Below are positions 1,887-62,845 of a DNA stretch of 64,000 nt, piece after piece. The first letter of the stretch is position 1; each line of letters starts with the position of its first letter. The position numbers and the translations under genes were made by a program. The notes under the pieces are model-generated. The model made no database searches. It was given only the letters and a program-made list of their open reading frames with translations, and was not told where the DNA came from. The stretch covers positions 2,434,980-2,498,979 of the forward strand of contig OY781964.1 of NCBI GenBank assembly GCA_963677485.1, read 5' to 3'. The stretch comes from Armatimonadota bacterium (GTDB lineage Bacteria > Armatimonadota > HRBIN16).

Positions 1887-2048
1887 GATTATAGGGGCGT
1901 GATGTCATGGTGGCTGGATTAATGCGTGAAAAATCCACACCCGACCAATACAGCCCTCCCGTTCGCACCCCCATGCTTGACATTCACACCCAAATCAGCT
2001 ACTCTACCCCTAAAGATCGCTCCGAAAGCTTCTTCCAGGAGAATTGGT

Positions 2049-5000
2049 ATGAACATCTCGCACAACGCTATCGACATCGCCCCATTCGCTCTGCCCAACT
2101 GCGCAGAAGGTGAAATCCGCTGGGAGGAGCCGCGCGACATCAGCCGCTTGGTGCTCCGATTCGCTACAGATCCCACCTCTGACATCATCGTGCGCTACCA
2201 GCGTAACCTCTGGCCGAACAGCCGGGTGGAGCGCGACTACAGGGGCATCGACAACGCGATGCAATATGGATGGGGAGCGGTTGACGACTGGTTCAACACG
2301 CCCTGGGTTGAGGCCAGCGTGGAGATCCGAAAGCTCGAAGCCTGTGTGTATGAGATCAGCTTCCAGCCGCTCTGCTCTGAACTACCCGATTACACCGACT
2401 ACAACGTGCAGTTCCGGCGCACTATGGGTTTGAAGATTCAAGCCGATACCCAGATAGATGAGTTGAATGTCTATACTCGCTGGGAGCCCACCTCCACCAC
2501 ACTGGAGGTCCAGCTTGACTGCGGCGGAGAAACCTCGGGCGGCATCAAGGCGGTGCATTGCTACAACACGGTGATTGAGGGCATCGACGGGCAGCTCTCA
2601 GACCGCAGCTTCAGAGTGCGTTTCAGACACCTGCAGGCTGCGATGGCCCATGCGGGTGATACCGGGCATGTGCGGTTTGAGCTAGACCATGACCAGTTCA
2701 CCATCTCGCTGGAATCCCTGGCCAAGCAGGGCCCCATCTGGTATGAACCGGAGCATATCTATACCAAACGTGCTGACGACCGGACCAGCTTTGAGGACTA
2801 CCTGCAGTCCATTGAGGGTGCCTCCACGTTGAATCAACGCGTGCTGGCCACCCACGACCAGGGTCTCGGTGGGGCTCTGATGGGCCAACCCCGCGCCCAT
2901 CCAGTGTCCAACAGCATCGGGTGCAAGTATGCCCGGCAGCGGTTCTGGGTGGAGTATAACGGTGACCTGGTGCTGACCAAGTCCAACATCGACTTAGTGA
3001 CGATGAGCGATACCCCACGCTATCTGAACAAATCGGATGCGCGACTGTTCTTTGGATTGGAGTCGTGGCGCAGCATGGGGCGGTTCGCTGACCCGTCACC
3101 TGTGCTCGCGCAGAACCTGCATTTCGTGTCTGACGGCCTGGTTTGCGAACAGAAGAGCTATGCCATCCCGTTGTTGAAGGGTATCGATGAGCCGTTGACG
3201 GGGGATGACAGCATCATTGCGATGGTGCGCATGCGCTTCCGCAATGACGGCTTCATGCTCATCAAAATGGAGCTGCCGCTGGAGTATTCAGCCGAATCAG
3301 CCCGTTCCAGCAACCGCACGGGAGCTGGTCATTATGACAAGAACACCAATGACTACCTGGTGCCCCTCAGCCCGCGCGAGCCGTTGACCATTGAACGAGA
3401 GAAAGGCACCACGCTGGTCTACGGTCGGCATGATGGCCAGAAAGTGCTGCGTTTCATGATCGATGCTGACAGTGATGTGCAAATCTCCACCACCGAGACG
3501 GGGCTGGTGATCAGCCAAATGCTGAAACCCGGCGAGGGCTGCGAGGCCATTATCAAGCTGCCCTTCATCGCCCTCGACAGGCCTGATGAGTTGGCGGCCC
3601 TGCAGGATCTCAGCTTCGAGAATGGCTACCAGCAGATTCGAAAATACTGGTATGATCAAGCCGCCTTCGGCACGCAGCTCCACACCCCAGAAGCGCGATT
3701 GAATGAGCTGCACGCCATCCACCCCGCACATGTCGGCACCGCGGATGTGGGCATGAGCGACGAGCCGGATCTAGTGAACACCTCGGTGGGCTCATCGACA
3801 TATGGCAACTTCGTGAACGAATCGGTGATGATCATGCAGGAGCTGGATGAACGCGGTCTGCATGATGAGGTGCGCCGACGGCTGGCGGTCTGGCTGAAAT
3901 ACCAGGGACAGATAGGACTGACCGGAAACTTCAGCGACCATGACGGCGTGTTTTACGCTGCAGGCGGTTTTGAAATGGGTGAGACCTACAGCCAGCACCA
4001 CGGTTGGGCCCTCTGGGGGTTCGCGGAGCATTATTTCATGACTCGCGACAAAGAATGGTTCAGTTCGATCGCACCCCAGCTCATCAACGGGGGCGATTGG
4101 GTGTTCCGGCAGCGTGCTTTGACTATGGAACCACTGCCGCATTCACGGGGATGGGAACACGGCTTCATGCCCGCAGCCAGCCTGGAGGACGTGGCCGACT
4201 ACTTCTACTGGCTAACCACCAACACCATGAGCTGGAAGGGTGTAGACCGCCTGGCTGCCGCTTTCGAGGCATGCAAACATCCGGAGGCGGCGCGACTGCG
4301 TCAGGAGGCCGATGCGTTCAAAGCCGACCTGCTGCGGGGCTTCAATACCGCCCGGCAGCACAGCCCCATCGTGCGCCTTCGGGACGGCCGGTGGGTGCCG
4401 CACACTCCCAGCCGGTTGTATCGGCGCGGGCGTGATTCGGGCTGGATCAGGGAGGTGCTGGAGGGCTCAGTCTACCTGGTGATGATGGGACTGATCGATC
4501 CAAACAGCAAACAGGCGGGCTGGATTCTGGACGATTATCAGGACAACCGCTACATCAGCGAGGACTACGGCTACCCCATCTACGATGTGAAACACTTCTG
4601 GTATGACAGCGGCGGGTTCTCCTGCCAGCCGAACCTTTTGGCCGGACTGATGCCGCATCTGGACAGAGATGAAATAGAGGTCTACCTGTGGATGTTCTAC
4701 AACGCCTGGGCGGCCACTTATCGCGAAGAGACCAATGCGATGGTGGAGCACCCCATGCCGGTGCTGGGGCAGTCCAACTCCGCGTGGGTGAAGACCAGCG
4801 ACCAGGCGAACTCCCAGAGGTGGCTGCGTTACATGTTTGTGTATGCCCCGCATGATGTGCTCTACATCGGCAGGGCGGTTCCCAGAGGGTGGCTGAAGAG
4901 CACCAAGCCGGTGGGCGTCAAAAGGGCAGCGACGCATTTTGGTGTGGTCGATGCCGCGTACATAGCCATGCCATCCAGGTATACCATCAGGCTAGATATC

Positions 5001-5186
5001 CAACTTAACCTACACTCCACACCGGAACGCATCATCGCCCGGTTCCGGCATCCTGAGAAAAAGCCCATCATCGATCTGCGAGTGAACGGAATGCTTCATG
5101 AGCAGTATGATCCGGTCACCGGTGATGTGGATATTACGGGTTTCACTGGGAAAGTAAGTGTAGAGGCAAGATATGAATCTTTATAA
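2049..5186 (+). CDS. Large hypothetical protein (about 1045 aa), possibly glycoside-hydrolase-like with an (alpha/alpha)6-barrel. The ORF-track start at 1926 lies inside the REP element.
   Basis: Long uninterrupted ORF. The ATG at 2049 is preceded by GGAGAA. The central region (HHGWALWGFAEHYF, NGGDWVFRQ) resembles six-hairpin glycosidases. Family not assigned. Confidence 0.6.
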   Translation: MNISHNAIDIAPFALPNCAEGEIRWEEPRDISRLVLRFATDPTSDIIVRYQRNLWPNSRVERDYRGIDNAMQYGWGAVDDWFNTPWVEASVEIRKLEACVYEISFQPLCSELPDYTDYNVQFRRTMGLKIQADTQIDELNVYTRWEPTSTTLEVQLDCGGETSGGIKAVHCYNTVIEGIDGQLSDRSFRVRFRHLQAAMAHAGDTGHVRFELDHDQFTISLESLAKQGPIWYEPEHIYTKRADDRTSFEDYLQSIEGASTLNQRVLATHDQGLGGALMGQPRAHPVSNSIGCKYARQRFWVEYNGDLVLTKSNIDLVTMSDTPRYLNKSDARLFFGLESWRSMGRFADPSPVLAQNLHFVSDGLVCEQKSYAIPLLKGIDEPLTGDDSIIAMVRMRFRNDGFMLIKMELPLEYSAESARSSNRTGAGHYDKNTNDYLVPLSPREPLTIEREKGTTLVYGRHDGQKVLRFMIDADSDVQISTTETGLVISQMLKPGEGCEAIIKLPFIALDRPDELAALQDLSFENGYQQIRKYWYDQAAFGTQLHTPEARLNELHAIHPAHVGTADVGMSDEPDLVNTSVGSSTYGNFVNESVMIMQELDERGLHDEVRRRLAVWLKYQGQIGLTGNFSDHDGVFYAAGGFEMGETYSQHHGWALWGFAEHYFMTRDKEWFSSIAPQLINGGDWVFRQRALTMEPLPHSRGWEHGFMPAASLEDVADYFYWLTTNTMSWKGVDRLAAAFEACKHPEAARLRQEADAFKADLLRGFNTARQHSPIVRLRDGRWVPHTPSRLYRRGRDSGWIREVLEGSVYLVMMGLIDPNSKQAGWILDDYQDNRYISEDYGYPIYDVKHFWYDSGGFSCQPNLLAGLMPHLDRDEIEVYLWMFYNAWAATYREETNAMVEHPMPVLGQSNSAWVKTSDQANSQRWLRYMFVYAPHDVLYIGRAVPRGWLKSTKPVGVKRAATHFGVVDAAYIAMPSRYTIRLDIQLNLHSTPERIIARFRHPEKKPIIDLRVNGMLHEQYDPVTGDVDITGFTGKVSVEARYESL

Positions 5187-5282
5187 GGGTGGGATCCGGT
5201 TTGTGAAAAGCGACTGCTATGTACCGCTTGAAGAGGCGCATACCGGCCACCCGGTGAGCTAAAAGTAGACCAGAGCCTTCCT

Positions 5283-5486
5283 ATGGGCCGTGGCTGCATC
5301 GTGCGGCTGGACGACTCCGACATCCCCCACTGGAGCACCTCCATCGCGCAGGTACTGCGCCAGATGGCGGCCAGTCAGCCCGATCTGCACGGGGTGAACC
5401 CCAGGCAAGATGGCAAGTTCCGCACCCAGTTTTCCGATGGCTGGTTGAGTTTCGATCCGAAGACGGGCACGACGCGCTGGGAGTAA
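5283..5486 (+). pseudogene. Orphan C-terminal fragment (about 65 codons) paralogous to the C-terminus of the CDS at 7021-8712.
   Basis: The translation GRGCIVRLDDSDIPHWSTSIAQVLRQMAASQPDLHGVNPRQDGKFRTQFSDGWLSFDPKTGTTRWE aligns residue for residue with ...GRGRIVRLDDADIVRWSAAIAQMLRQMAAKQPELHGVNPKQDGKWRTQFTDRWLSYDPKTGKTRWE at the end of 7021-8712. No upstream coding continuation exists. Confidence 0.7.
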
Positions 5487-7020: not shown

Positions 7021-8712
7021 ATGCCATATAACGCCGACAAGATGCACTTCGCCTCCGGCGTGTTGATGCTGCCCGATTTTCCGGGCTGTAACAACCGGGG
7101 CGTGATCACCGATCAGATGGTGCCCGGTCACGACCATGTGGAAGCCTACCTCTTCTGGCGGATGCTGGAGCCTCAGCAAGACCGGTGGCAATGGGATAAG
7201 GTCGACGAAATTTTGGAGCTGATGAAGCCCCGCGGCCAAAAGATGCTGGCCACCCCATGGTTGAACTACGCCCCCAAGTGGTTTGTGAACAGCGACCGTT
7301 ATGTGCCCCTCCAGGAGATGCACACCGGCAAGACCGTCGACCTGCTTTCCATCTGGGCTCCTGGCACCTGGTGGGTGTATGAGCACTTCTACAAGCAACT
7401 GGCAGCGAAATACGGCGATCAGATCGACATCATAAAGGTCAGCCTGCCCAGCTCCGACTTTGGCGAGGTGGGTTACCCCATGGGGGTGGCCGACTTCACC
7501 TCAGGTAGGATGTATGGTGAGCCGTTCCCGCAGTCCAAGGACGCCTGGCATATGGGCATGTGGTGCGGCGACCCGTATGCGGTGGCGAGCTTCCGCAAGG
7601 CGATGTCTCAGCCTTACCGCTCGCTGGGTGCTCTGAACAAGCTTTGGTGCACGAGCTACACGCACTGGGACCAACTGGAAATGATGCGGATAGAGGATCG
7701 CAAGCAGTGCACTCAGCGCTGGCTTGACCTAATGGCCTGGTACAACAACAGTCAGGTAGAGGCCACACGCAAGGCCATGAAGATCGTGCGAAAGTACTTC
7801 CCGAAAGCCTATCTGGAGGTACCGCTGGGTTACGGCTGCGATCTGCCGCAATACGGCTGCGACCGCACGGCTCTGTGCCGCGTGGTGGGCGAGTTCGGCA
7901 ACGCTGCCGTGCGCAGCACGCACGGCAGCTTCAACCGATGGGTTGTGCCTGCTGCATACTGGTTCTATAAGCGTATGGCACCGGTCTGCCACAGATACGG
8001 CGCAGGTTTTGGTACAGAGCCGCCCGGTGGAGACCTCACGCCAGCCGAGATGAAACGGCAGCTTTTTGAGGATGCCAGCGGAGGTGTGAATCTGCTGTAT
8101 AGTTATTATCAAAACTGGCACACGCTGCCGGATGTAGCCAAACAATGGAGCACCTTCTGCCGACCTTCGAAGCTCTCTATGGTCTCAGTGGGTGTGATCT
8201 ATTCCAACACTCAGATGGCCCTTGACCTCGCCGAATACCCCGTCGGGCAGTGGGAGCTGTTCGACGCACTTCGCCCCACAGTGGACATGGATGTGGTCGA
8301 TGAACACATGATGAGCTGGGGCTGGCTGTCGCAATACAAGCTGCTGATCAACACCAACGGCAAGACATATCCCAAAGAGTGCCTGAGCCTTCTGTGGAAG
8401 TGGCTGCAAAAAGGCGGGGTGCTGATCACCCGCGGCGGGTCAACGTTGTCGGACGTCGAGGGGCGCGCCTGGCCTATCGGGGAGCTGAATGTGGAACAGA
8501 GCGTCCCCGTGGGCCGTGGGCGCATCGTGCGGCTGGACGATGCAGATATTGTGCGTTGGAGTGCTGCCATCGCCCAGATGCTGCGGCAGATGGCCGCCAA
8601 ACAGCCAGAGCTACACGGCGTGAACCCCAAGCAGGACGGTAAATGGCGCACGCAGTTCACCGACCGATGGCTGAGCTACGACCCGAAGACGGGCAAAACC
8701 CGCTGGGAGTAG
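7021..8712 (+). CDS. Glycoside hydrolase, GH42-like (beta-galactosidase family) TIM-barrel protein.
   Basis: Motif YLFWRMLEPQQDRWQWDKVDEILELMKPRGQKMLATPWLNYAPKWF matches the GH42/GH35-type W..LEP..G.Y.W..D.V...P.W arrangement. GAGAA lies upstream of the ATG. Confidence 0.55.
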   Translation: MPYNADKMHFASGVLMLPDFPGCNNRGVITDQMVPGHDHVEAYLFWRMLEPQQDRWQWDKVDEILELMKPRGQKMLATPWLNYAPKWFVNSDRYVPLQEMHTGKTVDLLSIWAPGTWWVYEHFYKQLAAKYGDQIDIIKVSLPSSDFGEVGYPMGVADFTSGRMYGEPFPQSKDAWHMGMWCGDPYAVASFRKAMSQPYRSLGALNKLWCTSYTHWDQLEMMRIEDRKQCTQRWLDLMAWYNNSQVEATRKAMKIVRKYFPKAYLEVPLGYGCDLPQYGCDRTALCRVVGEFGNAAVRSTHGSFNRWVVPAAYWFYKRMAPVCHRYGAGFGTEPPGGDLTPAEMKRQLFEDASGGVNLLYSYYQNWHTLPDVAKQWSTFCRPSKLSMVSVGVIYSNTQMALDLAEYPVGQWELFDALRPTVDMDVVDEHMMSWGWLSQYKLLINTNGKTYPKECLSLLWKWLQKGGVLITRGGSTLSDVEGRAWPIGELNVEQSVPVGRGRIVRLDDADIVRWSAAIAQMLRQMAAKQPELHGVNPKQDGKWRTQFTDRWLSYDPKTGKTRWE

Positions 8713-8740: not shown

Positions 8741-9083
8741 CATCGGTCGGATCGGTCGGATCCGTCCGATGAATGGTGCGTCACGTGGCACGGATGGCGG
8801 GTACACAACGCAATGGCGCAAAGGTGCAAGGGACGCAGAGGGGTATTCCATCCGCGTTCATCTGCGTCCATCCGCGGTTTAGGTAATCTTTCGCAGCAGG
8901 GGTGCCCACCGTCCGCTTCACCGGACCGGTACTGATCAGCGATGGGTGACAAGGCTCGCTTTAGCGGGTTGCCGGAACCCGTCGCACATGACCGCGTAGC
9001 GCGGACGACGGGCATCCAACGCAATGGCGCAAAGGGGCAAGGGACGCAGAGGACCATCCCATCAGTCCCCATCCGCGGTTCAC
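8741..9083. repeat. Word-repeat island W1. It holds two copies of ...ACGCAATGGCGCAAAGG[TG]GCAAGGGACGCAGAGG...CCATCCGCGGTT, plus CATCGGTCGGATCGGTCGGATCCGTCCGATGAATGG.
   Basis: Direct reading: 9-10-bp periodic variants of a decamer. The module CCATCCGCGTTCATCTGCGTCCATCCGCGGTTTAGG is shared with 10192-10268. Confidence 0.8.
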
Positions 9084-9199
9084 AAAAAAACTAATATGCC
9101 TGTTAAGCAGTTGACATTTATTGAAACGAAGGCGTATAGTCATATCATGCTGTAAAGGAAATGGACCCAATCCGCATGAGTGGGAGAGCCAACCGTAGA

Positions 9200-9413
9200 T
9201 ATGACTCGCCTCGTCGTCTTTTTCCATGGATGGCAGCCGTTCCTTCTGGTTGTTGTATTCTTGCTGATGTTCATGAACCGCAAACGACCAGACTACAAAG
9301 CGCGCGGTGTGCTGATCTGCACTGCCGCAGTGTTGGTCTTTACGCCAGTAGTTGGGTGTGTCCAAGGCATGCGCTACAATCTCAGTATCGTCGTAATGGT
9401 ATTAAGTTGGTAA
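9200..9413 (+). CDS. Possible small membrane protein (about 71 aa); weak call.
   Basis: Hydrophobic two-helix ORF (LVVFFHGWQPFLLVVVFLLMFM...VLICTAAVLVFTPVVGCV). It overlaps an alternative ORF at 9161-9517 in another frame. No strong RBS. Confidence 0.25.
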
Positions 9414-9557
9414 AGTCGTCTACGCCCCAGCATATAGTGCAAGACGGATCTGGTATCATGGCTACGATATGTGGCCAGAGTTATGACATTCATATGGGTG
9501 ACGTGAAGGGATATTAAACGTCTACCAGAAACTTCGTATGTGCAAAGGAGTGTTGAA

Positions 9558-10151
9558 ATGGATCAAGAATGTTCTGTGTGCGGCCGAGTGCAGCCTGTAG
9601 AAAGTCGCTATTGCCCTTACTGTGGTGCCGATCGTCAGACCTCAAGCCGGCGTGACGACGGTGTGCAGTCAATAAAGTCCTACATATTACGTATAGTTTT
9701 AATATTAGTGGCTGTGTTTGTCGTGATCCCGGGGTTGGTAAGGCTTATCGTGGGGTTGTTTGTGGTTTCCTATTTCGGATCATCGCCGGTGCCAGAACAG
9801 CAGGTGCAGGTCAGTAATCCATCGACACCAGAAGTGCATACTACACAGACCTCTGGCGGCGTTCTTGGCGGCGGTAGTGTTAAAGCACCAAAACATATAT
9901 CGGGTTCGATCCGCACTTACAACGGCAACACGCCAGTGAACACACCCCACCAGTTTATGTCAATATCAAAATATCGTATACCGGGAATGAAGATATATGT
10001 AAAAGTAGGGGCTGGCGTATACACATATCACGCAGCTTACATCAGCGATGATGGGATTAATTGTGATGTGCGATTCCCAGATGGGTCGGTCGGAAGGATG
10101 GAGAACCGTGCTCTCAATAAACTATATACCGACTATTTGGCCCCTCGCTAG
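9558..10151 (+). CDS. Zinc-ribbon domain membrane protein, hypothetical.
   Basis: N-terminus MDQECSVCGRVQPVESRYCPYCGAD (CxxC...CxxC), then a transmembrane helix ILRIVLILVAVFVVIPGLVRLIVGLFVV and an extracytoplasmic tail. AAGGAG lies 8 nt upstream of the ATG at 9558. Confidence 0.6.
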   Translation: MDQECSVCGRVQPVESRYCPYCGADRQTSSRRDDGVQSIKSYILRIVLILVAVFVVIPGLVRLIVGLFVVSYFGSSPVPEQQVQVSNPSTPEVHTTQTSGGVLGGGSVKAPKHISGSIRTYNGNTPVNTPHQFMSISKYRIPGMKIYVKVGAGVYTYHAAYISDDGINCDVRFPDGSVGRMENRALNKLYTDYLAPR

Positions 10152-10182
10152 CCGGGTTAAGGGGGAATATCAATCCACAGAT

Positions 10183-10270
10183 GACGGGCATCCAACGCAA
10201 AGACGCAAAGGTGCAACGGACGCAGAGGGGTATCCCATCCGCGTTCATCTGCGTCCATCCGCGGTTTTAG
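10183..10270. repeat. Word-repeat island W2: CAACGCAAAGACGCAAAGGTGCAACGGACGCAGAGGGGTATCCCATCCGCGTTCATCTGCGTCCATCCGCGGTTTTAG.
   Basis: Near-identical to 8806-8882. Together they form direct repeats bracketing the 1.3-kb AT-rich segment at 8883-10182. Confidence 0.8.
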
Positions 10271-16792: not shown

Positions 16793-17150
16793 TGGATTGT
16801 CTGAACCACGGATTACGCGGATAATTCGGATGACACGGATGGGGAGGCGGGTTTGTCACGCGAAGACGCGAAGACGCGAAGGGGGTGGGGAGTGTGTCAC
16901 GCGTAGACGCGAAGACGCGAAGGGGAGGCGGGTTGGACGGATGCGAGGGCGCGAAGACGCGAAGGGGCAAGGCGGGTTGGATGTATGCGAGGGCGTGGCG
17001 GGTATGGTGCGTATGGCTACCCCTGGGAACGCCAATCTCCCGATTGGCATTTCCCTTCCCCATTCGCGTTCATTCGTGTTCATTCGCGGTTAAAATGAGC
17101 CAGCAACAGGTCGGGTAGGATGAGTAGGACGAGTAAGGTAAGGGTAGGGC
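16793..17150. repeat. Word-repeat island W3, the richest in the window. It contains CTGAACCACGGATTACGCGGAT, GTGTCACGCGAAGACGCGAAGACGCGAAGG x3, CATTCGCGTTCATTCGTGTTCATTCGCGGTT and GGTAGGATGAGTAGGACGAGTAAGG.
   Basis: Direct reading. The modules are shared with islands at 26425, 44183, 53463, 57714 and 62350. The ORFs called here (16728-17093 and others) are repeat artefacts. Confidence 0.85.
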
Positions 17151-24633: not shown

Positions 24634-24890
24634 CATGACCACATTGCCGCGACATAAATATCAGTCTATTACCCACAAATATTGCATGGCCAGTAGGTCA
24701 CCGATTCCGCGACATAAATGTCTCGGCTATTGAACACTAAGACTGCTGAAGCAGTCTTCATTAACGTTATCTATGTCGGCAAGGAGCTCCGCAGCCCGGT
24801 TTAGCGGGCTTGTTGATCAATAGCCGAGACATTTATGTCGCGGCACATGGTCGAAACGATCCCAACTGGATTTGTGGGTAATAAACTGGG
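24634..24890. repeat. Nested palindromic element. It has 27-bp perfect inverted arms CCGCGACATAAATGTCTCGGCTATTGA, an outer TTACCCACAAAT/ATTTGTGGGTAA pair, inner hairpins AAGACTGCTGAAGCAGTCTT and AGCCCGGTTTAGCGGGCT, and a third variant copy of the arm.
   Basis: Seen directly in sequence. It sits about 300 bp upstream of dinB. Confidence 0.8.
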
Positions 24891-24970
24891 TTCCTGCACC
24901 GCACGGCTAATCATTAGCGGCCGGCGTCGCTTCGCTCCGGCCGGCGCAAGGAGGGTCTTGTTCGCGAAAC

Positions 24971-25044
24971 CAGTCTTCCTGGCTAACCGCCAGAACGGCG
25001 CGGTCATGAGCTTTCTGCTGCCGCTAGCCTGCGCACAGACCGCC
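24971..25044. repeat. REP/MITE-like element, partial right half (...AGAACGGCGCGGTCATGAG...CAGACCGCCCCGGACATGG).
   Basis: Matches the right inverted repeat and the inner right arm of the family. Confidence 0.7.
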
Positions 25045-25090
25045 CCGGACATGGCCAATTGGGCTGCGGTGGTCATCACCCAATCTGCGT

Positions 25091-25172
25091 CATCTGTGTA
25101 ATCTGTGGATGACCCTCCCCCTTCGCTTCTTCGCACTACCCCCCAATCTGCTATACTTGAACATATAGCGAC
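25091..25172. repeat. Word-repeat island W4 (CAATCTGCGTCATCTGTGTAATCTGTGGATGACCCTCCCCC...CCCCCAATCTGC).
   Basis: Shares the AATCTGCG...TCTGTGTAATCTGTGGAT module with 26531-26564 and 62771-62800. Confidence 0.7.
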
Positions 25173-25191
25173 CACCACAACAGACCAACGG

Positions 25192-26403
25192 ATGCGAAAC
25201 ACCATGGGAACACCTGACAGGATCATCTTTCTGCTTGATATGGATGCGTTCTTTGCCAGCGTGGAGGAACGGGAAGAGCCTGATCTGAAGGGGCATCCCG
25301 TCATTGTGGTCGGCAGCCCAAGCCCCCGCGCGGTGGTGTGTGCCGCCAACTATGAGGTTCGCAGATATGGGGTGCATTCCGCCATGGCCTACAGCCGGGC
25401 GATGCGCCTCTGCCCTCACGCCAAAGTGATCACGGCACGCCCGGAGCTCTATCGGGCGACCTCCCGCCGCATCTTCGCGATCTGCGAGACATTTACCGAT
25501 CTGGTGGAGATATCATCCATCGACGAGTGCTATCTGGACATGGCTCCCACAGCAGAGCGGTTTGGCGGGGCTGTGGAGGCTGCCAGGGCGCTCAAGAACC
25601 GCATCCGCACAGAAGAACGGCTCACACGCACCATTGGCATCGCCCCGAACAAGATGCTGGCCAAACTGGCTGCTGGCATGAAGAAGCCCGATGGGCTATT
25701 TCAGATCACCGCACAGGATGTCCCCCGCCTGCTCGCGGATCTGCCCGTTGGTGAGATCAACGGGATCGGCGACAAAACCGCGGCCAAGCTGAAGTCCATA
25801 GGCGTGAGCACTGCAGGGACATTGGCCACTATTGATAGATCGGTTCTGTGCAGAATGTTCGGGAAGACTGGCGACTGGCTGGCGGACGTCAGCCGCGGCA
25901 TCGACCATTCGCCGGTCGTGCCCTACTACAACAGCCCAGCGCCCAAATCGGTCAGCAACGAACACACGCTTGAGAACAACACCCACGACATGGAGCTGCT
26001 CCGACGCACTTTACGATCCCTGTCTGAGCAAGTTGCCAGCAGTCTGCGGAAGAGCGGGCTGTCCGCGAAGACCGTGGGGCTGACGCTGCGTTACAGCAAC
26101 TTTGAACGCATCACCCGCAGCAAGACGCTCAATGACACCACCGATGATGGCCTCGTGATATACCAGTCGATACTGCCGTTACTGGATGCCGCGATGAAGA
26201 ACTCCAGGTCGGTGCGTTTGATTGGGGTATTTACGGGGAACCTCACCCAGGGAGCCACCCAGCATGGTCTGTTTGACAACCCGAAACTGAAAAGTCTCAC
26301 CGATGCCGTGGATGCCATGAACGACAAGCTGGGCAAGATCGCCGTGAAACCCGCCTCCCTTGTGAACATCGACCAGGATGACCACATCACCTTCCAGGGG
26401 TGA
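25192..26403 (+). CDS. dinB: DNA polymerase IV (Y-family, DinB).
   Basis: RIIFLLDMDAFFASVE...VIVVGSP...RAVVCAANYEVRRYGVHSAM...SIDECYLDM is a canonical Y-family palm. Start at ATG 25192 (or 25204); the ORF-track start at 25105 lies inside the repeats. Confidence 0.9.
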   Translation: MRNTMGTPDRIIFLLDMDAFFASVEEREEPDLKGHPVIVVGSPSPRAVVCAANYEVRRYGVHSAMAYSRAMRLCPHAKVITARPELYRATSRRIFAICETFTDLVEISSIDECYLDMAPTAERFGGAVEAARALKNRIRTEERLTRTIGIAPNKMLAKLAAGMKKPDGLFQITAQDVPRLLADLPVGEINGIGDKTAAKLKSIGVSTAGTLATIDRSVLCRMFGKTGDWLADVSRGIDHSPVVPYYNSPAPKSVSNEHTLENNTHDMELLRRTLRSLSEQVASSLRKSGLSAKTVGLTLRYSNFERITRSKTLNDTTDDGLVIYQSILPLLDAAMKNSRSVRLIGVFTGNLTQGATQHGLFDNPKLKSLTDAVDAMNDKLGKIAVKPASLVNIDQDDHITFQG

Positions 26404-26424: not shown

Positions 26425-26564
26425 CTGAACCACGGATTAACCGGATGGCAAACTTGGCCCCTTTGCGTTATGTTCCCCGCCATTCGTGTTCCTTCGTGTG
26501 AATTCGTGGTTAAGAACCTCCCCAGTCAATCCCAAATCTGCGCACTCTGTGTAATCTGTGGATA
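26425..26564. repeat. Word-repeat island W5 (CTGAACCACGGATTAACCGGATGG...CATTCGTGTTCCTTCGTGTGAATTCGTGGTTAAG...AATCTGCGCACTCTGTGTAATCTGTGGAT).
   Basis: Modules are shared with W3, W4, W6 and W9. Confidence 0.8.
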
Positions 26565-31141: not shown

Positions 31142-31530
31142 TATTTGCTCCTTTGTTGGGCGTTTTGAAGTCTCCTACGCGTCCGCTCATACGGTGTCCT
31201 CGACTTTCTTGTCAAGTTGCGGACCTGCTACCCGGCCTTTTTCTCTTTCCGTTTTACCAAACTTGCCGGGTTGCTTGCTACTCGAGGTAACCGCTTCGGC
31301 TACCCGATTCGCCGGTAATGAGAACTTGCCAGGATAGTTCTGGTATTCAGTTTACCTGCTATCTTATAGCGGGCTTGGTATCAACTGAACTATATTAGTA
31401 ATACCCGGTCCTGACAGCTTGAATCTTCTTTTTATGCCCAATTACATAAGTATTATTACTAGTTTTTTGGTATCACTTGACACTACACAGTATTGCAAGG
31501 TTATTCTTTGGTAGCTACTCAGACATTAAT

Positions 31531-31693
31531 GGCTATGTCCGGGGCGGTCTGTGCGTAGGCTAGCGGATGCAGAAGGCTCAAGACCGCGCCGGTCTGGCGG
31601 TTAGCCCTAAAAGATTTTTGTCGGGAACAAGACCGGCGCGGTCTATAGACTGTGGCCACCGCAGGCGTACTGACAGACCGCCCCGGACATTGG
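31531..31693. repeat. REP/MITE-like element, full unit in inverted arrangement.
   Basis: GGCTATGTCCGGGGCGGTCT...CAAGACCGCGCCGGTCTGGCGG...AAGACCGGCGCGGTCT...CAGACCGCCCCGGACATTGG. Confidence 0.8.
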
Positions 31694-31718
31694 TAAACCA
31701 GTGAGTTCAAGGGAAATC

Positions 31719-44182: not shown

Positions 44183-44293
44183 CCTTCGTGTTCATTCGTG
44201 TGAATTCGTGGTTAAGAGAAGACCGGTAGGATGAGTAGGTCGAGTAGGACAGGTTCCATACCCTCCGCGTCCTCCGCGTCTCCGCGTGACACC
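44183..44293. repeat. Word-repeat island W6 (CCTTCGTGTTCATTCGTGTGAATTCGTGGTTAAG...GGTAGGATGAGTAGGTCGAGTAGGAC...CTCCGCGTCCTCCGCGTCTCCGCGTGACAC).
   Basis: Same modules as W3. The last module is the reverse complement of the GTGTCACGCGAAGACGCGAAG type with A/G variation. Confidence 0.8.
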
Positions 44294-48645: not shown

Positions 48646-49300
48646 GACCGGGGCGGTCTCGGTTGCCTATGTCCGGGGCGGTTTTCCCTAACCACGCCGG
48701 CCTTGATCCATGCGTGACGAGGGATTTACGGCTAACCGCCAGACCGGCGCGGTCTTGAGTCTTCTGTAGCCGCGAGCCTCCTGTCAGACCGCCCCGGACA
48801 TAGGCAATGATTGCTTCTCGATATTATGGCCAGCGTCCGGGGCGGTTTCTCCTAACCGCGCCGGTCTTGATCTATGCGTGACGAGGGATTTACGGCTATC
48901 CGCCAGACCGGCGCGGTCTTGAGCTTTCTGTAGCCGCCAGCCTCCTGTCAGACCGCCCCGGACATAGGCAATGATTACTTCTTGATATTATTGCCAGAGT
49001 CCGGGCGGTTTTCTCCTAACCGCGCCGGTCTTGATCTATGCGTGACGAGGGATTTACGGCTATCCGCCAGACCGGCGCGGTCTTGAGATTTCTGCAACCG
49101 CAAGCCGCCTGTCAGACCGCCCGGACATAGGCAATGGTAGCTTCTCAATATTATGGCCAGAGTCCGGGGCGGTTTTCCCTAACCGCGCCGGTCTTGATCT
49201 ATACGTGACGAGGGATTAACGGCTATCCGCCAGACCGGCGCGGTCTTGAGCCTTCAGTAGCCTCGAGCCACCTGTCAGACCGCCCCGGACATAGGCAATG
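48646..49300. repeat. Tandem array of four REP/MITE-like units of about 160-165 bp. Each has inverted repeats GTCCGGGGCGGT...AGACCGCCCCGGACATAGG and inner arms ACCGCGCCGGTCT...AGACCGGCGCGGT.
   Basis: Four head-to-tail copies are directly visible with scattered point differences. The array fills the whole gap between two convergent GH genes. Confidence 0.9.
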
Positions 49301-49328
49301 GTAGCACCAGCAATCCGCAGAATCTCCC

Positions 49329-52613: not shown

Positions 52614-53351
52614 CTAGTAGCCGAGAGACTTCATGTAGTCGATGCACTCTTTAGCGACCTGCATCGGCTTGCCGTAGGTGTCGTCCTGTTCGATGATGAG
52701 GTATTCCACACCCTTGGTGGCCTCCAGTGCGAACAGAGCTGGCCAGTCGATGGTGCCGCTGCCCACGGAGATCATCTTGCCCTCAGTGTCCATATCTTTG
52801 ACGTGCAGCAAGGGCAGGCGACCTGCTCGCTTGTTGATGGCTCCTGCGATGTCCTGCCCGCCATGCTTGACCCAGAACAGGTCGAGTTCGGCGTTCAAGT
52901 CGGGCGCATTGGTGTAAAGAAGATCGAGACCGAGCTGACCTTCATAGGTGCCGAACTCAAAGCTGTGGTTGTGATAGCACAGGGTGATACCCAGCTTGGC
53001 CAGTTTTTCGGCTCCGGCTTGCATCATGGCCGCGGAGGCCTTCCATGCGGCCGCGTCGCTGCGCATCTCTTCAGGGATGTAAGCCACTGTGAAGTATTTT
53101 GCACCGAGTGTTTTGGCGTTGGCGGCGACGGTATCGCAGTCGGCCAGGTCGTTAGGACCGCCATGCATGGAGATGGCCTGCAGGCCGTGTTTTGCGAGTG
53201 TTTCGGCCAACTTTTCAATGGACAGGCCGTAGGTGCCGGCGGTCTCAACATACTTATAGCCCATTGCGGCCAAACCGGCCAGGGTGCCGTGTAGGTCGGC
53301 ATCGGCGGCGTCACGAACGGTATACAGTTGGATAGCGAGTTGCGGTTTCAT
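52614..53351 (-). CDS. Sugar phosphate isomerase/epimerase (xylose-isomerase-like TIM barrel).
   Basis: LAIQLYTVRD...GYKYVE...LCYHNHSFEF...LLHVKD is the AP-endonuclease 2 / xylose-isomerase-like TIM-barrel signature. Confidence 0.85.
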   Translation of the reverse strand: MKPQLAIQLYTVRDAADADLHGTLAGLAAMGYKYVETAGTYGLSIEKLAETLAKHGLQAISMHGGPNDLADCDTVAANAKTLGAKYFTVAYIPEEMRSDAAAWKASAAMMQAGAEKLAKLGITLCYHNHSFEFGTYEGQLGLDLLYTNAPDLNAELDLFWVKHGGQDIAGAINKRAGRLPLLHVKDMDTEGKMISVGSGTIDWPALFALEATKGVEYLIIEQDDTYGKPMQVAKECIDYMKSLGY

Positions 53352-53462: not shown

Positions 53463-53489
53463 CTCACGCGAAGACGCGAAGACGCGAAG
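53463..53489. repeat. Word-repeat island W7 (CACGCGAAGACGCGAAGACGCGAAGG).
   Basis: Identical to the octamer module in W3. Confidence 0.75.
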
Positions 53490-53551
53490 GTAATGACCGG
53501 CGCGGTTTAACGACATGGGCCGGTGTCGTGGACCGAAGCTGATCAGCTCAC

Positions 53552-54170
53552 GTTGCCGCGGGTTTAGTCACCCCATGAATGGGGTTCCCTCACCGCGCGT
53601 CTAGGTTATCGCAGCCCGCAAGCGGGCGCATGTTGCCCTCCGCCAGCGCCTGCAGGAGCGTAGCGACGCGGGCAGCCATCTAATCAGCGACGGGTGATGG
53701 AGCCCCCTGGGGCGATGGAACCCGTCGACACGGGACGGTCGTTGATATCGGAGGTGTTTAGCCCTCGCTGCCGCGGGTTTAGTCACCCCGTGAACGGGGT
53801 TCCCTCACCGCGCGTCTAGGTATTGGCAGCCCGTAATCGGGCGCATGGCCCTCCGCCAGCGCCCGCAGGAGCGAAGCGACGCGGGCAGCCATCTGATCAG
53901 CGACGGGTGATGGAGCCCCCTGGGGCGATGGAACCCGTCGACTCGGGGCCGCTCACCTATATCGCAGGCTACCAGCCTCGCTGCCGCGGGTTTAGTCACC
54001 CCATGAATGGGGTTCCTTCACCGCGCGTATAGGTATTTGCAGCCCGCAAGCGGGCGCATGGCCCTCCGCCAGCGCCCGCTGGAGCGAAGCCGACGCGGGC
54101 AGCCAACTGATCAGCGACGGGTGATGGAGCCCCCTGGGGCGATGGAACCTGTCGACACGGGCGTGTTGAC
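53552..54170. repeat. Tandem array of about 2.9 copies of a 216-bp unit rich in hairpins. Candidate structured ncRNA or satellite.
   Basis: Units start at 53552, 53768 and 53984 (period 216). The hairpin CACCCCATGAATGGGGT in units 1 and 3 reads CACCCCGTGAACGGGGT in unit 2; the A-T pair becomes G-C, a compensatory change. Other conserved hairpins: GCCCGCAAGCGGGC and GCCCCCTGGGGC. The small ORFs at 53601-54204 are repeat artefacts. Confidence 0.85.
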
Positions 54171-57713: not shown

Positions 57714-58071
57714 GGGGCTGAACCGCGGATGGACGCAGATAGACGCGGATGGGGAGGAGTATCTGAACCACGGATTACGCGGATGACACGGATGGGTTCG
57801 GATGGAGAGGGAGTGCCTACACCACGGATGGACGCAGATAGACGCCGATGGGGGAGTGTCTGAACCGCGGCTTACGCGGATGACACGGATGGGTTCGGAT
57901 GGAGAGGGAGTGTCTATTCTACGGATGGACACGGATGGACACGGATGGACACCGATGGGTTCGGATGGGAGGTGCATCATCAACCACTATACACAGTTAC
58001 TTATCCTCTATGGTTCAGATGCTCCCTCTCCATCTGTGTCATCATGAAAATCCGTGTAATCCGTGGTTCAG
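57714..58071. repeat. Word-repeat island W8 (CTGAACCGCGGATGGACGCAGATAGACGCGGATGG, CTGAACCACGGATTACGCGGATGACACGGATGGGTTCGGATGG x2, ACGGATGGACACGGATGGACACGGATGGACACCGATGG...AATCCGTGTAATCCGTGGTTCAG).
   Basis: Direct reading with 10-bp periodicity. It ends with a reverse-complement copy of the GAACCACGGATTAC module. Confidence 0.85.
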
Positions 58072-58134
58072 AAAAATAACTACAGCGGCAGTGGGCGTCG
58101 GGGATGTGCTAATCAGGCGAACAGCAGAAGGCCA

Positions 58135-62349: not shown

Positions 62350-62845
62350 TCCTCCGGATGGCCTCACGCGGAGAGCGCGAAGGGGAAGGACCATCCACAG
62401 ATTACGCAGATTACGCAGATTACGCAGATTGGCTGAACCGCGGATAGACGCAGATGAACGCGGATGGGACATCTCATGACCGGGGCGGTCATGCAGTAAC
62501 CTGGCGGCACCAGAAAGCTCAAGACCGTGCGGGTCTTTTGTTTGAACCACGAATGAACACAGATAGACACGAATGGACGCAGATGAACGCGGGTGATCGA
62601 ACCACAACGTATAAGCTATTGGCCAAACCGTAGTTAACGCCAGACACACAGTGCGTAGTCACATACCTCCGCGCCTTTGCTTCTTGGCGTCTTTGCGTTG
62701 AATCCCGATTCTACCATCCATGTCATCCGATCCATCTGCGTTCATCTGCGTCTATCCGCGGTTAAGACAATCTGCGTAGTCTGTGTAATCTGTGGATGAA
62801 TCCTCCCCCTCCGCGTCCTCCGCGTCTCTGCGTGAGACACACCCA
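62350..62845. repeat. Word-repeat island W9 (GATTACGCAGATTACGCAGATTACGCAGATTGG; CTGAACCGCGGATAGACGCAGATGAACGCGGATGG; GAACCACGAATGAACACAGATAGACACGAATGGACGCAGATGAACGCGGGTG; CCATCTGCGTTCATCTGCGTCTATCCGCGGTTAAG; AATCTGCGTAGTCTGTGTAATCTGTGGATG; CTCCGCGTCCTCCGCGTCTCTGCGTGAGAC).
   Basis: Direct reading. Copies in both orientations occur within one island. The ORFs at 62275-62649 and 62364-62570 are artefacts. Confidence 0.85.
62476..62543 (+). terminator. Hairpin pair inside W9: the palindrome CATGACCG-GGG-CGGTCATG, and the terminator-like AAGACCGTGCGGGTCTT followed by TTGTTT.
   Basis: Seen directly. The stems reuse the REP-family cores (GACCGGGGCGGTC, AGACCG..CGGTCTT). Confidence 0.45.

Follow-up and report, generated by a model that had tools for sequence, protein, structure and literature searches.

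Tandem-word arrays in the intergenic spacers of an Armatimonadota genome, probably selfish palindromic repeats related to GxxExxY nuclease cassettes

Short tandem words in nine intergenic islands

A 64,000-nt stretch of the genome of an Armatimonadota bacterium (contig OY781964.1, positions 2,434,980 to 2,498,979; hereafter the window) contains nine intergenic islands in which words of 8-10 nt are repeated head to tail, among them the focal island of this study at 16793..17150. About 70 kb of the source genome was viewed. A first-pass annotation of the window had described the nine islands as variants of a single decamer with a fixed 10-bp phase, lying outside coding sequences, and had named a shuffled-sequence control. 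An array scan for the core word CRCRRAK spaced 8-11 nt, with 100 dinucleotide-preserving shuffles as the control, identified 26 arrays in the window against a shuffle mean of 0.73, and 17 of the arrays had three or more units, whereas none of that size was seen in any of the shuffles. All 26 arrays are located within the nine islands, and all nine islands contain arrays, confirming that part of the annotation. Every array is intergenic in the window according to our own open reading frame (ORF) map, which also confirms the placement outside coding sequences, and tandem, convergent and divergent spacers are all used.

The period of the arrays was not constant. Among 25 arrays it was 8 bp in five, 9 bp in ten and 10 bp in ten, and autocorrelation gave equal peaks at lags 9 and 10, which does not agree with a fixed phase of one helical turn. 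Differences between adjacent units comprised 49 transitions and 30 transversions, in line with the transition-rich variation described earlier. Instead of one decamer, about seven word families (A-G) were distinguished in the islands. These are family A, AACCRCGGAT-(N)NN-ACRCRGAT with 9-mer or 10-mer spacing, for which the main arm pattern of 30 nt is AACCRCGGAT-NN-ACRCRGAT-NN-ACRCRGAT; family B, AACCACGAAT...; family C, ATCCACAGATTACGCAGAT, with units of AATCTGYGT in island 4; family D, TCACGCGAAG or ACGCGGAG; family E, AACGCAAAG; family F, GTAGGAYGA; and family G, GATCGGTCG. Families F and G are unrelated to the decamer, and in the other families the core ACRCRRAK is the sole common part, as their leaders differ. 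An arm begins with a short fixed leader (CTGAACC, TTAACC, ATCC or TCAC), continues with between two and five head-to-tail words, each 8-10 nt long with the core ACRCRRAK, and has a terminal GG. The modules do occur in both orientations, as had been reported, but their order had been understated, with inverted pairs, nested palindromes and recurring composites all present; the composites in the window are GACGGGCATC-E(+)-A(-) (three times), B'-F (twice) and C'-D' (three times).

The focal island 3 (16793..17150, both strands) lies between two minus-strand genes and consists mostly of solo, one-sided arms. It contains an A-type 9-mer arm (16803-16843, + strand), three D-type ACGCGAAG arrays (16856-16884, 16897-16925 and 16948-16967, + strand), a small hairpin (17031-17048), a B-type arm (17060-17093, - strand) and an F-type GTAGGAYGA array (17113-17150). 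The most ordered arrangement is that of island 9 (62350..62845), a nested palindrome of the form D-C-A ... A'-C'-D' (62363-62838). Its left side carries three + strand modules, D (62363-62385), C (62392-62432) and A (62432-62467), and its right side three - strand modules, A (62731-62765), C (62768-62797) and D (62804-62838). Between the two sides there are part of a second repeat family, a hairpin resembling a terminator (62521-62537), a B-like array (62544-62592, + strand) and an E array (62667-62704, - strand). Island 8 (57714..58075) has A-type arms on both strands and forms a long imperfect hairpin overall, with five purine-rich A-type 10-mer/9-mer arms on the + strand (57718-57752, 57763-57796, 57819-57852, 57862-57893 and 57913-57958) and one A-type arm on the - strand (58046-58072); it lies between the true terminator of a 152-aa gene (58180-58137) and the promoter region of a LacI-family gene.

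Island 1 (8741..9083, both strands) lies between the stop of gene 7021-8712 and a strong promoter-like site at 9111-9140, and comprises a G-type palindrome (8741-8771), an E-type array (8797-8834, + strand), an A-type arm (8848-8880, - strand), a second E array (9017-9052, + strand) and a decayed A arm (9053-9083, - strand). The canonical terminator before island 8 and the promoter-like site after island 1 indicate that the islands fill the spacer between transcription units. Island 2 (10183..10270) is a composite of GACGGGCATC, an E array (10193-10230, + strand) and an A-type arm (10235-10267, - strand), and is a direct copy (86%) of 8789-8897, with a shorter copy at 9004-9063. Direct copies of the GACGGGCATC-E(+)-A(-) composite at 9004-9083 and 10180-10270 bracket two hypothetical genes with low GC3 (G+C at third codon positions; 9161-9517 and 9540-10151), the second of which has a zinc-ribbon N-terminus, in an arrangement that resembles a repeat-bounded cassette.

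The remaining islands are smaller. Island 4 (25080..25140, - strand) has a C-type arm (25082-25107) followed by a D-like CTTCGC array and is located upstream of a DinB-like gene starting at 25205. Island 5 (26425..26564), in a convergent spacer, holds a decayed A arm (26425-26448, + strand) and B (26480-26512) and C (26533-26563) arms on the - strand, and island 6 (44183..44293), in a divergent spacer, holds a B arm (44183-44214, - strand), an F array (44225-44250) and a D-type ACGCGGAG arm (44260-44291, - strand). Island 7 (53463..53490, + strand) consists of one D-type arm standing alone, CTCACGCGAAGACGCGAAGACGCGAAGG; it lies upstream of the minus-strand gene 52614-53351, a member of the AP-endonuclease family, at a distance of about 110 nt from the gene start.

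Inverted arms and their turnover between close relatives

Most of the arrays form the arms of inverted repeats. Island 9 folded far better than its shuffles (z score -13.3 for the + strand and -12.6 for the - strand), as did island 8 (z -6.2), and the focal island 3 folded weakly (z about -2). Across loci, adjacent arrays on opposite strands were arranged '+ then -' in 75 cases and '- then +' in 11, indicating that the AACC leader is the base of the stem. Stems are up to about 30 bp long, with the leader outermost in the 75 arm pairs, and the loop between paired arms is variable in sequence, with a median length of 64 nt and a small second mode near 430 nt. Copies of an element within one genome have loop length, and often loop sequence, in common. 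The gene contexts of arm pairs were ++ (21), -- (16), convergent (12) and divergent (11), and solo arms had no preference for the sense or antisense strand (16 vs 13; 35 vs 26). The suggestion that modules are tied to gene ends or gene starts was not upheld, as tandem, convergent and divergent spacers are all occupied with no preference for gene ends.

The strong folding of islands 8 and 9 would also be expected if the arrays act as RNA, with the long hairpins serving as RNase III sites, 3'-exonuclease blocks or terminators in the manner of repetitive extragenic palindromic (REP) elements or 23S intervening sequences. Consistent with this, the arms of a gene-carrying cassette from another genome (locus L209, described below) pair in the predicted RNA fold and bury the start codon (z -4.4), hairpins in phage genomes are intergenic and lie just upstream of ribosome-binding sites, and the 23S intervening sequence of Coxiella burnetii is a hairpin excised by RNase III with 5' tandem GACAGAT heptamers ahead of its ORF (PMC4990558). 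However, RNA-type wobble asymmetry was absent, as the transcribed strand and its complement had equal numbers of G.U-compatible arm mismatches (26 vs 26 in ++ contexts, 22 vs 22 in -- contexts), and transversions were as frequent as transitions among arm mismatches. Divergent spacers contain pairs about as often as convergent ones, solo arms ignore the direction of transcription, island 8 is downstream of a canonical terminator, most small islands fold no better than shuffles, and island content differs between close relatives. The orientation, context, wobble, strand and loop-copy results together argue against a strand-specific RNA role or a gene-end signal and favour copying as DNA. We consider an RNA function unlikely.

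Turnover was assessed with two close relatives, OW818647.1 and a metagenome-assembled genome (MAG), with 81-87% nucleotide identity to the window genome in a syntenic 570-aa gene. In this comparison, of the kind proposed in the first-pass annotation, the arrays differed by whole modules between the close relatives. The island 8 spacer is bounded in all three genomes by two conserved signals, the terminator of the 152-aa gene and the LacI-family promoter. It is 575 nt long and packed with A arms in the window genome; in OW818647.1 it measures 371 nt and its arrays are different, and in the MAG it measures 423 nt and is free of arrays. Island 9 is 533 nt in the window genome and 279 nt in the MAG, with the outer modules in common and whole modules inserted or deleted. 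Over the syntenic block, arrays with at least three units number 11 in the window genome and 5 and 3 in the two relatives. Same-strain short-read contigs (L204 and L205) end within islands 8 and 9. The orthologous spacers of relative L206 (78% protein identity) contain no arrays, in a region where synteny is partly broken, and more distant relatives reached through homologues of pyruvate:ferredoxin oxidoreductase (PFOR; about 65% identity) had three arrays in 1.07 Mb. The solo D array of island 7, CTCACGCGAAGACGCGAAGACGCGAAGG, is identical in the window (53463-53490) and two further genomes (L328 16531-16560 and L329 12418-12447); the three genomes are 13-19% different in coding DNA, and the whole upstream region of the gene is generally conserved.

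This identity of the island 7 array upstream of gene 52614-53351 is one of the observations that would be explained if the arrays were DNA sites for a multimeric nucleoid-associated, insulator or iteron-like protein, with one word per helical turn. The tandem words, 9-10 bp apart and usually three per arm, also fit this explanation, and small dimeric repressors such as MetJ and omega recognise tandem boxes of 7-8 bp whichever way these are oriented. We nevertheless regard it as improbable, and the earlier proposal of protein binding by helical phase fails, because periods of 8, 9 and 10 bp within the same islands would place the words off one face of the helix. Position and orientation relative to genes are not fixed, arrays are gained and lost between close relatives in which the flanking promoter and terminator are kept, and the same arm is found in phyla and phages that have no obvious binding factor in common and no recurring regulator gene nearby.

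The window also contains other repeats. A second family, unrelated to the arrays, occurs at 1661-1890, 24954-25059, 31530-31696, 48655-49305 and 62475-62536; its unit is about 164 nt long and has GTCCGGGGCGG...CCGCCCCGGAC as its closing stem (fold z -4.0). There are four tandem units at 48655-49305, where the 48.6-49.3 kb spacer is 693 nt in the window genome and 240 and 187 nt in the two close relatives, and one unit within island 9. A 213-nt tandem repeat (2.8 copies, about 88-92% identity) at 53511-54161 makes up most of the spacer beside island 7, which is 883 nt in the window genome compared with 731 and 440 nt in the relatives. A 137-nt imperfect inverted repeat (CCGCGACATAAATGTCTCGGCTATT...AATAGCCGAGACATTTATGTCGCGG) at 24707-24843, before the DinB-like gene, is unrelated to the decamer arrays. 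Finally, 8478-8711, the 3' end of gene 7021-8712 beside island 1, is 76% identical over 234 nt to 5252-5485, just downstream of gene 1926-5186, and this pair may be a duplicated gene end or a common domain.

Spread across phyla and phages, and the GxxExxY genes

The spread of the A arm was determined by scanning a one-genome-per-species collection with the 30-nt pattern, for which about 0.1 chance matches were estimated from base counts. At least 120 stretches matched in these species-representative genomes, and the main arm type is thus not peculiar to the window genome. The record titles of the matches listed cover roughly 15 phyla, mostly Verrucomicrobiota and Planctomycetota, with Acidobacteriota, several Proteobacteria classes, Desulfobacterota, Bacteroidota, Chloroflexota, Cyanobacteria, Armatimonadota, Nitrospirota, Spirochaetota and others also represented; individual phylum assignments may be wrong, because many of the records are MAGs. 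Two isolates, Asticcacaulis biprosthecium C19 and a Microcoleus sp., are among the matches listed. In IMG/VR viral contigs, 85 stretches with A arms, 14 with D arms and 10 with C arms were found, and, read by eye, these contigs have recurring large gene clusters that resemble phage terminase, portal and structural genes. In a Caldilineaceae MAG an A-type arm lies directly upstream of an XisH gene (L013 7451-7907), and in Microcoleus an A-type arm abuts an AATTGGT heptamer array (L051 3232-3300). The array-bearing loci of other phyla contain 421 short tandem arrays, 108 of which have a period of 7. Rfam returned no relevant family for the islands (gathering score; E<=5) or the GxxExxY cassettes described below (E<=1), and in a literature search for the arm sequences as text, the long strings were not present in any paper retrieved.

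This distribution bears on the proposal that the arrays are microsatellite-like decamers decaying by deamination, or, more generally, products of local replication slippage with no mobility or common origin. Such an origin agrees with the lean towards transitions in adjacent units (49 vs 30), with unit numbers that vary between copies and relatives, and with the presence of further short tandem arrays, many having 7-nt units, in loci of this type. It leaves unexplained the arms of about 30 nt that are near-identical across phyla and phages and have the same leader, the 75 vs 11 orientation rule, the dispersed copies with loops in common and the bounding of one specific gene family by the arms. 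Because the arms are near-unchanged, the orientation rule holds and loops are copied together with the arms, the microsatellite-decay picture does not fit; a slippage origin is already disfavoured, and we consider it very improbable.

Three array loci carry an ORF of about 120 aa right at the arms that encodes a GxxExxY protein (TIGR04256 / PF13366), and the arm-bounded genes in other genomes score above the TIGR04256 / PF13366 profile cut-off and have the PD-(D/E)XK fold and the conserved catalytic residues. A profile search gave at least 8,000 matches, and at least 21,718 representatives at 50% identity with E<=0.001. Of the best 120 of at least 8,000 homologues, approximately 40% start with M-N/D-T/A-D-x-H-G/R or ...EEPRMNADEHG, and among diverse 50%-identity representatives with readable N-termini about a third start with M-N/D-T/A-D. 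This M-N/D-T/A-D start is the translation of CGGATGAACRCGGAT and lies outside the TIGR04256 profile, and the longer start M-N/D-T/A-D-x-H-G/R is the translation of GAACCGCGGATGAACGCGGATGAACACGG, placing the start codon within the arm. Many of the best 120 homologues end with ...NHG*, corresponding to AACCACGGATGA, which is the beginning of another arm.

On the gene side, the sample consisted of the DNA for six GxxExxY proteins, three of which lack an arm-coded N-terminus, and the L027 locus. All seven independent GxxExxY loci (L027, L207/208, L209/210, L211-215, L325, L326 and L327) are either between + and - A arms or arm-flanked, a seven-of-seven count that is biased upward because the loci were reached from array-linked queries. 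Outside the window genome, arm-bounded GxxExxY cassettes are found within defence loci (L209 1488-1922; L211 1380-1970; L326 560-1250). One of them, that of Dissulfurirhabdus, has genes for an SNF2 helicase and PglZ on its two sides and the order arm with ATG, gene, arm; in a predicted RNA fold its arms pair and the ATG is buried. Another is beside duplicated hsdS 3' ends, and a third is between Fic and HsdS genes, where there is also a 64-aa ORF inside its own arm pair. Locus L325 contains a full GxxExxY gene and four tandem gene-less hairpins. The loops of these hairpins derive from the same ORF: either its leader and opening codons are joined to its closing codons, or just 3' fragments of it are present. 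This is the relationship of a miniature inverted-repeat transposable element (MITE) to its parent, seen in one genome. GxxExxY remnants in loops were otherwise found just where full genes exist.

Probable selfish palindromic repeats and their comparison with known systems

From this evidence, the islands are probably selfish palindromic repeats, REP- and MITE-like and related to GxxExxY nuclease cassettes, together with solo and decayed arms, in support of the earlier suggestion of non-coding repeats of a selfish type as opposed to genes. The hairpin architecture, the spread over phyla and the link to GxxExxY nuclease genes had not been noticed in the first-pass annotation. We infer that the elements multiply at the DNA level. 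An element consists of two inverted arms, with the leader at the stem base, that enclose a loop of variable sequence, and the full form of the A-type family has two arms around the GxxExxY gene of about 120 aa, often with the start codon in the 5' arm. Internal deletion of such cassettes may give rise to gene-less hairpins, in the way that MITEs derive from transposons. In the part of the Armatimonadota genome that was viewed, gene-less elements alone are seen, in neutral terminator-to-promoter spacer, and close relatives differ in them by the gain, loss and rearrangement of single modules. The arms may be cut or recombined by the GxxExxY nuclease or by a different enzyme acting in trans, possibly with the arm palindromes as cleavage sites and homing-like copying from one arm copy to another. 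In a transcribed element, pairing of the arms would conceal the start codon of the cassette. A more specific reading, which is offered tentatively, is that an undescribed mobile cassette has the arrays as its terminal repeats and as its MITE-like progeny, and that in it a minimal Cas4-like PD-(D/E)XK GxxExxY nuclease recognises the inverted arms of tandem words and brings about homing-like self-copying.

Several observations weigh against the interpretation of the islands as selfish palindromic repeats related to GxxExxY cassettes. In addition to the upward bias of the seven-of-seven count, the sampled GxxExxY loci come from one part of a very large family. Neither the window nor the phage loci with arrays, about 1 Mb in all, contain a GxxExxY gene, and one is nearby in just 3 of about 120 bacterial array loci. 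No transposase-like gene recurs near the arrays, and the genes that do recur there are just phage structural genes and housekeeping genes. Several islands, including the focal island 3, are solo arms with no significant fold, and the small islands, which are mostly solo or decayed arms, fold no better than shuffles. No target-site duplication was found at the arm ends of aligned copies (L007, L016, L028, L066 and L103), and across 451 islands there was no clean pair of empty and filled sites, just repeat artefacts and copy-number differences; on these two results, transposition of the elements is at most putative. Many of the matching records are MAG bins that are possibly mis-binned, so the taxonomic breadth rests largely on MAG labels. 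Lastly, the identity of the island 7 array in three relatives could reflect a function.

If the mobile-cassette reading is true, it would explain the large paralogous families of GxxExxY genes, their presence in defence loci, and the spread of the arms across about 15 phyla and phages. GxxExxY / PF13366 is a large orphan family with no known function, for which arm bounding and the start codon in the arm provide a testable DNA substrate. An intergenic repeat class that is common to phyla and phages, compared with the mostly lineage-specific REPs, raises the question of how it is transmitted and maintained. At a practical level, the arrays break short-read assemblies, as in L204 and L205, and cause spurious ORFs and false N-terminal extensions (MNTDEHG, QITQITQI and NLCNLW), and the sharp differences in arrays between close relatives could serve as strain markers.

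Several identities were considered for the arrays and rejected. Units of 8-10 nt head to tail without spacers are not the 24-48-nt repeats with spacers of a CRISPR array. An rRNA intervening sequence does not fit a window without rRNA or tRNA genes, in which the islands lie between protein-coding genes. The arm ends (CTGAACC...GGTTCAG and TTAACC...GGTTAA) fit the RYYYAAC ... GTTRRRY cores of integron attC sites just sporadically, and the neighbouring genes are ordinary and run in both directions, unlike single-orientation cassettes. By eye, the DnaA box TGTGGATAA has just GGATAA in common with the words, the GGA of CsrA sites is missing from many words, and there is no strand bias as for Rho rut sites. 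The cyanobacterial class of short tandemly repeated repetitive (STRR) and TAACTGA sequences has no counterpart in the periods of 8, 9 and 10 of the window, where just one 7-mer array was called.

The first-pass annotation had recognised no described class of REP, bacterial interspersed mosaic element (BIME), enterobacterial repetitive intergenic consensus (ERIC) or CRISPR sequence. The Rfam and CRISPR results agree with this, and the gene of the REP-associated tyrosine transposase (RAYT; Y1/HUH transposase) was not found among the ORFs adjoining arrays in about 1.8 Mb of array-bearing loci, but a likeness to REPs and MITEs can be drawn. REP, BIME and REPIN sequences with RAYT (REPtrons) are intergenic high-copy palindromes that are regarded as selfish and may affect mRNA as a side-effect (PMC3733652). 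The elements described here are likewise high-copy intergenic palindromes, often in inverted pairs and mosaics and absent or different in close relatives, and a small repeat-flanked gene exists elsewhere in the family. Unlike REPs, the arms here are made of tandem 8-10-nt words and are about 30 nt or longer. A REP family is mostly restricted to one species or genus, and the arm described here is common to phyla and phages; the gene encodes a PD-(D/E)XK GxxExxY protein and not a Y1 (HUH) transposase. GTAG- or CGTC-tagged REPs are imperfect palindromes of 20-40 bp with an unpaired tag at one end. The single arms are not self-palindromic, and hairpins need two arms 4 to >400 nt apart; no GTAG tag is present, and CGTC occurs inside D-type words (GCGTCTTCGCGTC), where it belongs to the repeat unit instead of marking an end.

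The 23S intervening sequence of C. burnetii has tandem GACAGAT heptamers just before the ORF start, with a copy number that varies between strains (PMC4990558). Such intervening sequences with an S23p (PF05635) gene are hairpin-bounded selfish elements with a small ORF in the loop and a sporadic distribution that suggests horizontal transfer, and the GACAGAT heptamers resemble the ACRCRGAT words of the arrays. The elements described here differ in lying in intergenic spacers and in having an ORF of the GxxExxY family and not S23p; the single PF05635 gene that was seen (L211) has no arrays upstream. STRR heptamers and the TAACTGA repeats of Beggiatoaceae, Cyanobacteria and Bacteroidetes are co-distributed with the PD-(D/E)XK-like XisH/XisI genes (PMC4679880). 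They are also short tandem intergenic words with a patchy occurrence across phyla and suspected horizontal transfer, and A-type arms were found beside heptamer arrays in Microcoleus and beside the XisH gene in L013. In contrast to these 7-mers, which are mostly direct repeats and are oriented towards start codons in Beggiatoaceae, the arrays described here have units of 8-10 nt, a defined leader, inverted arms and no orientation bias. In comparison with MITEs, the parent encodes a nuclease of about 120 aa and not a recognised transposase, the loops of copies are often unrelated, and, of three features of MITEs, target-site duplication was lacking. The other two features, terminal inverted repeats and derivation by internal deletion, were both found: as in MITEs, terminal inverted repeats surround a short non-coding core (75 pairs) in multiple dispersed copies, and L325 contains internal-deletion derivatives of a gene-carrying parent.

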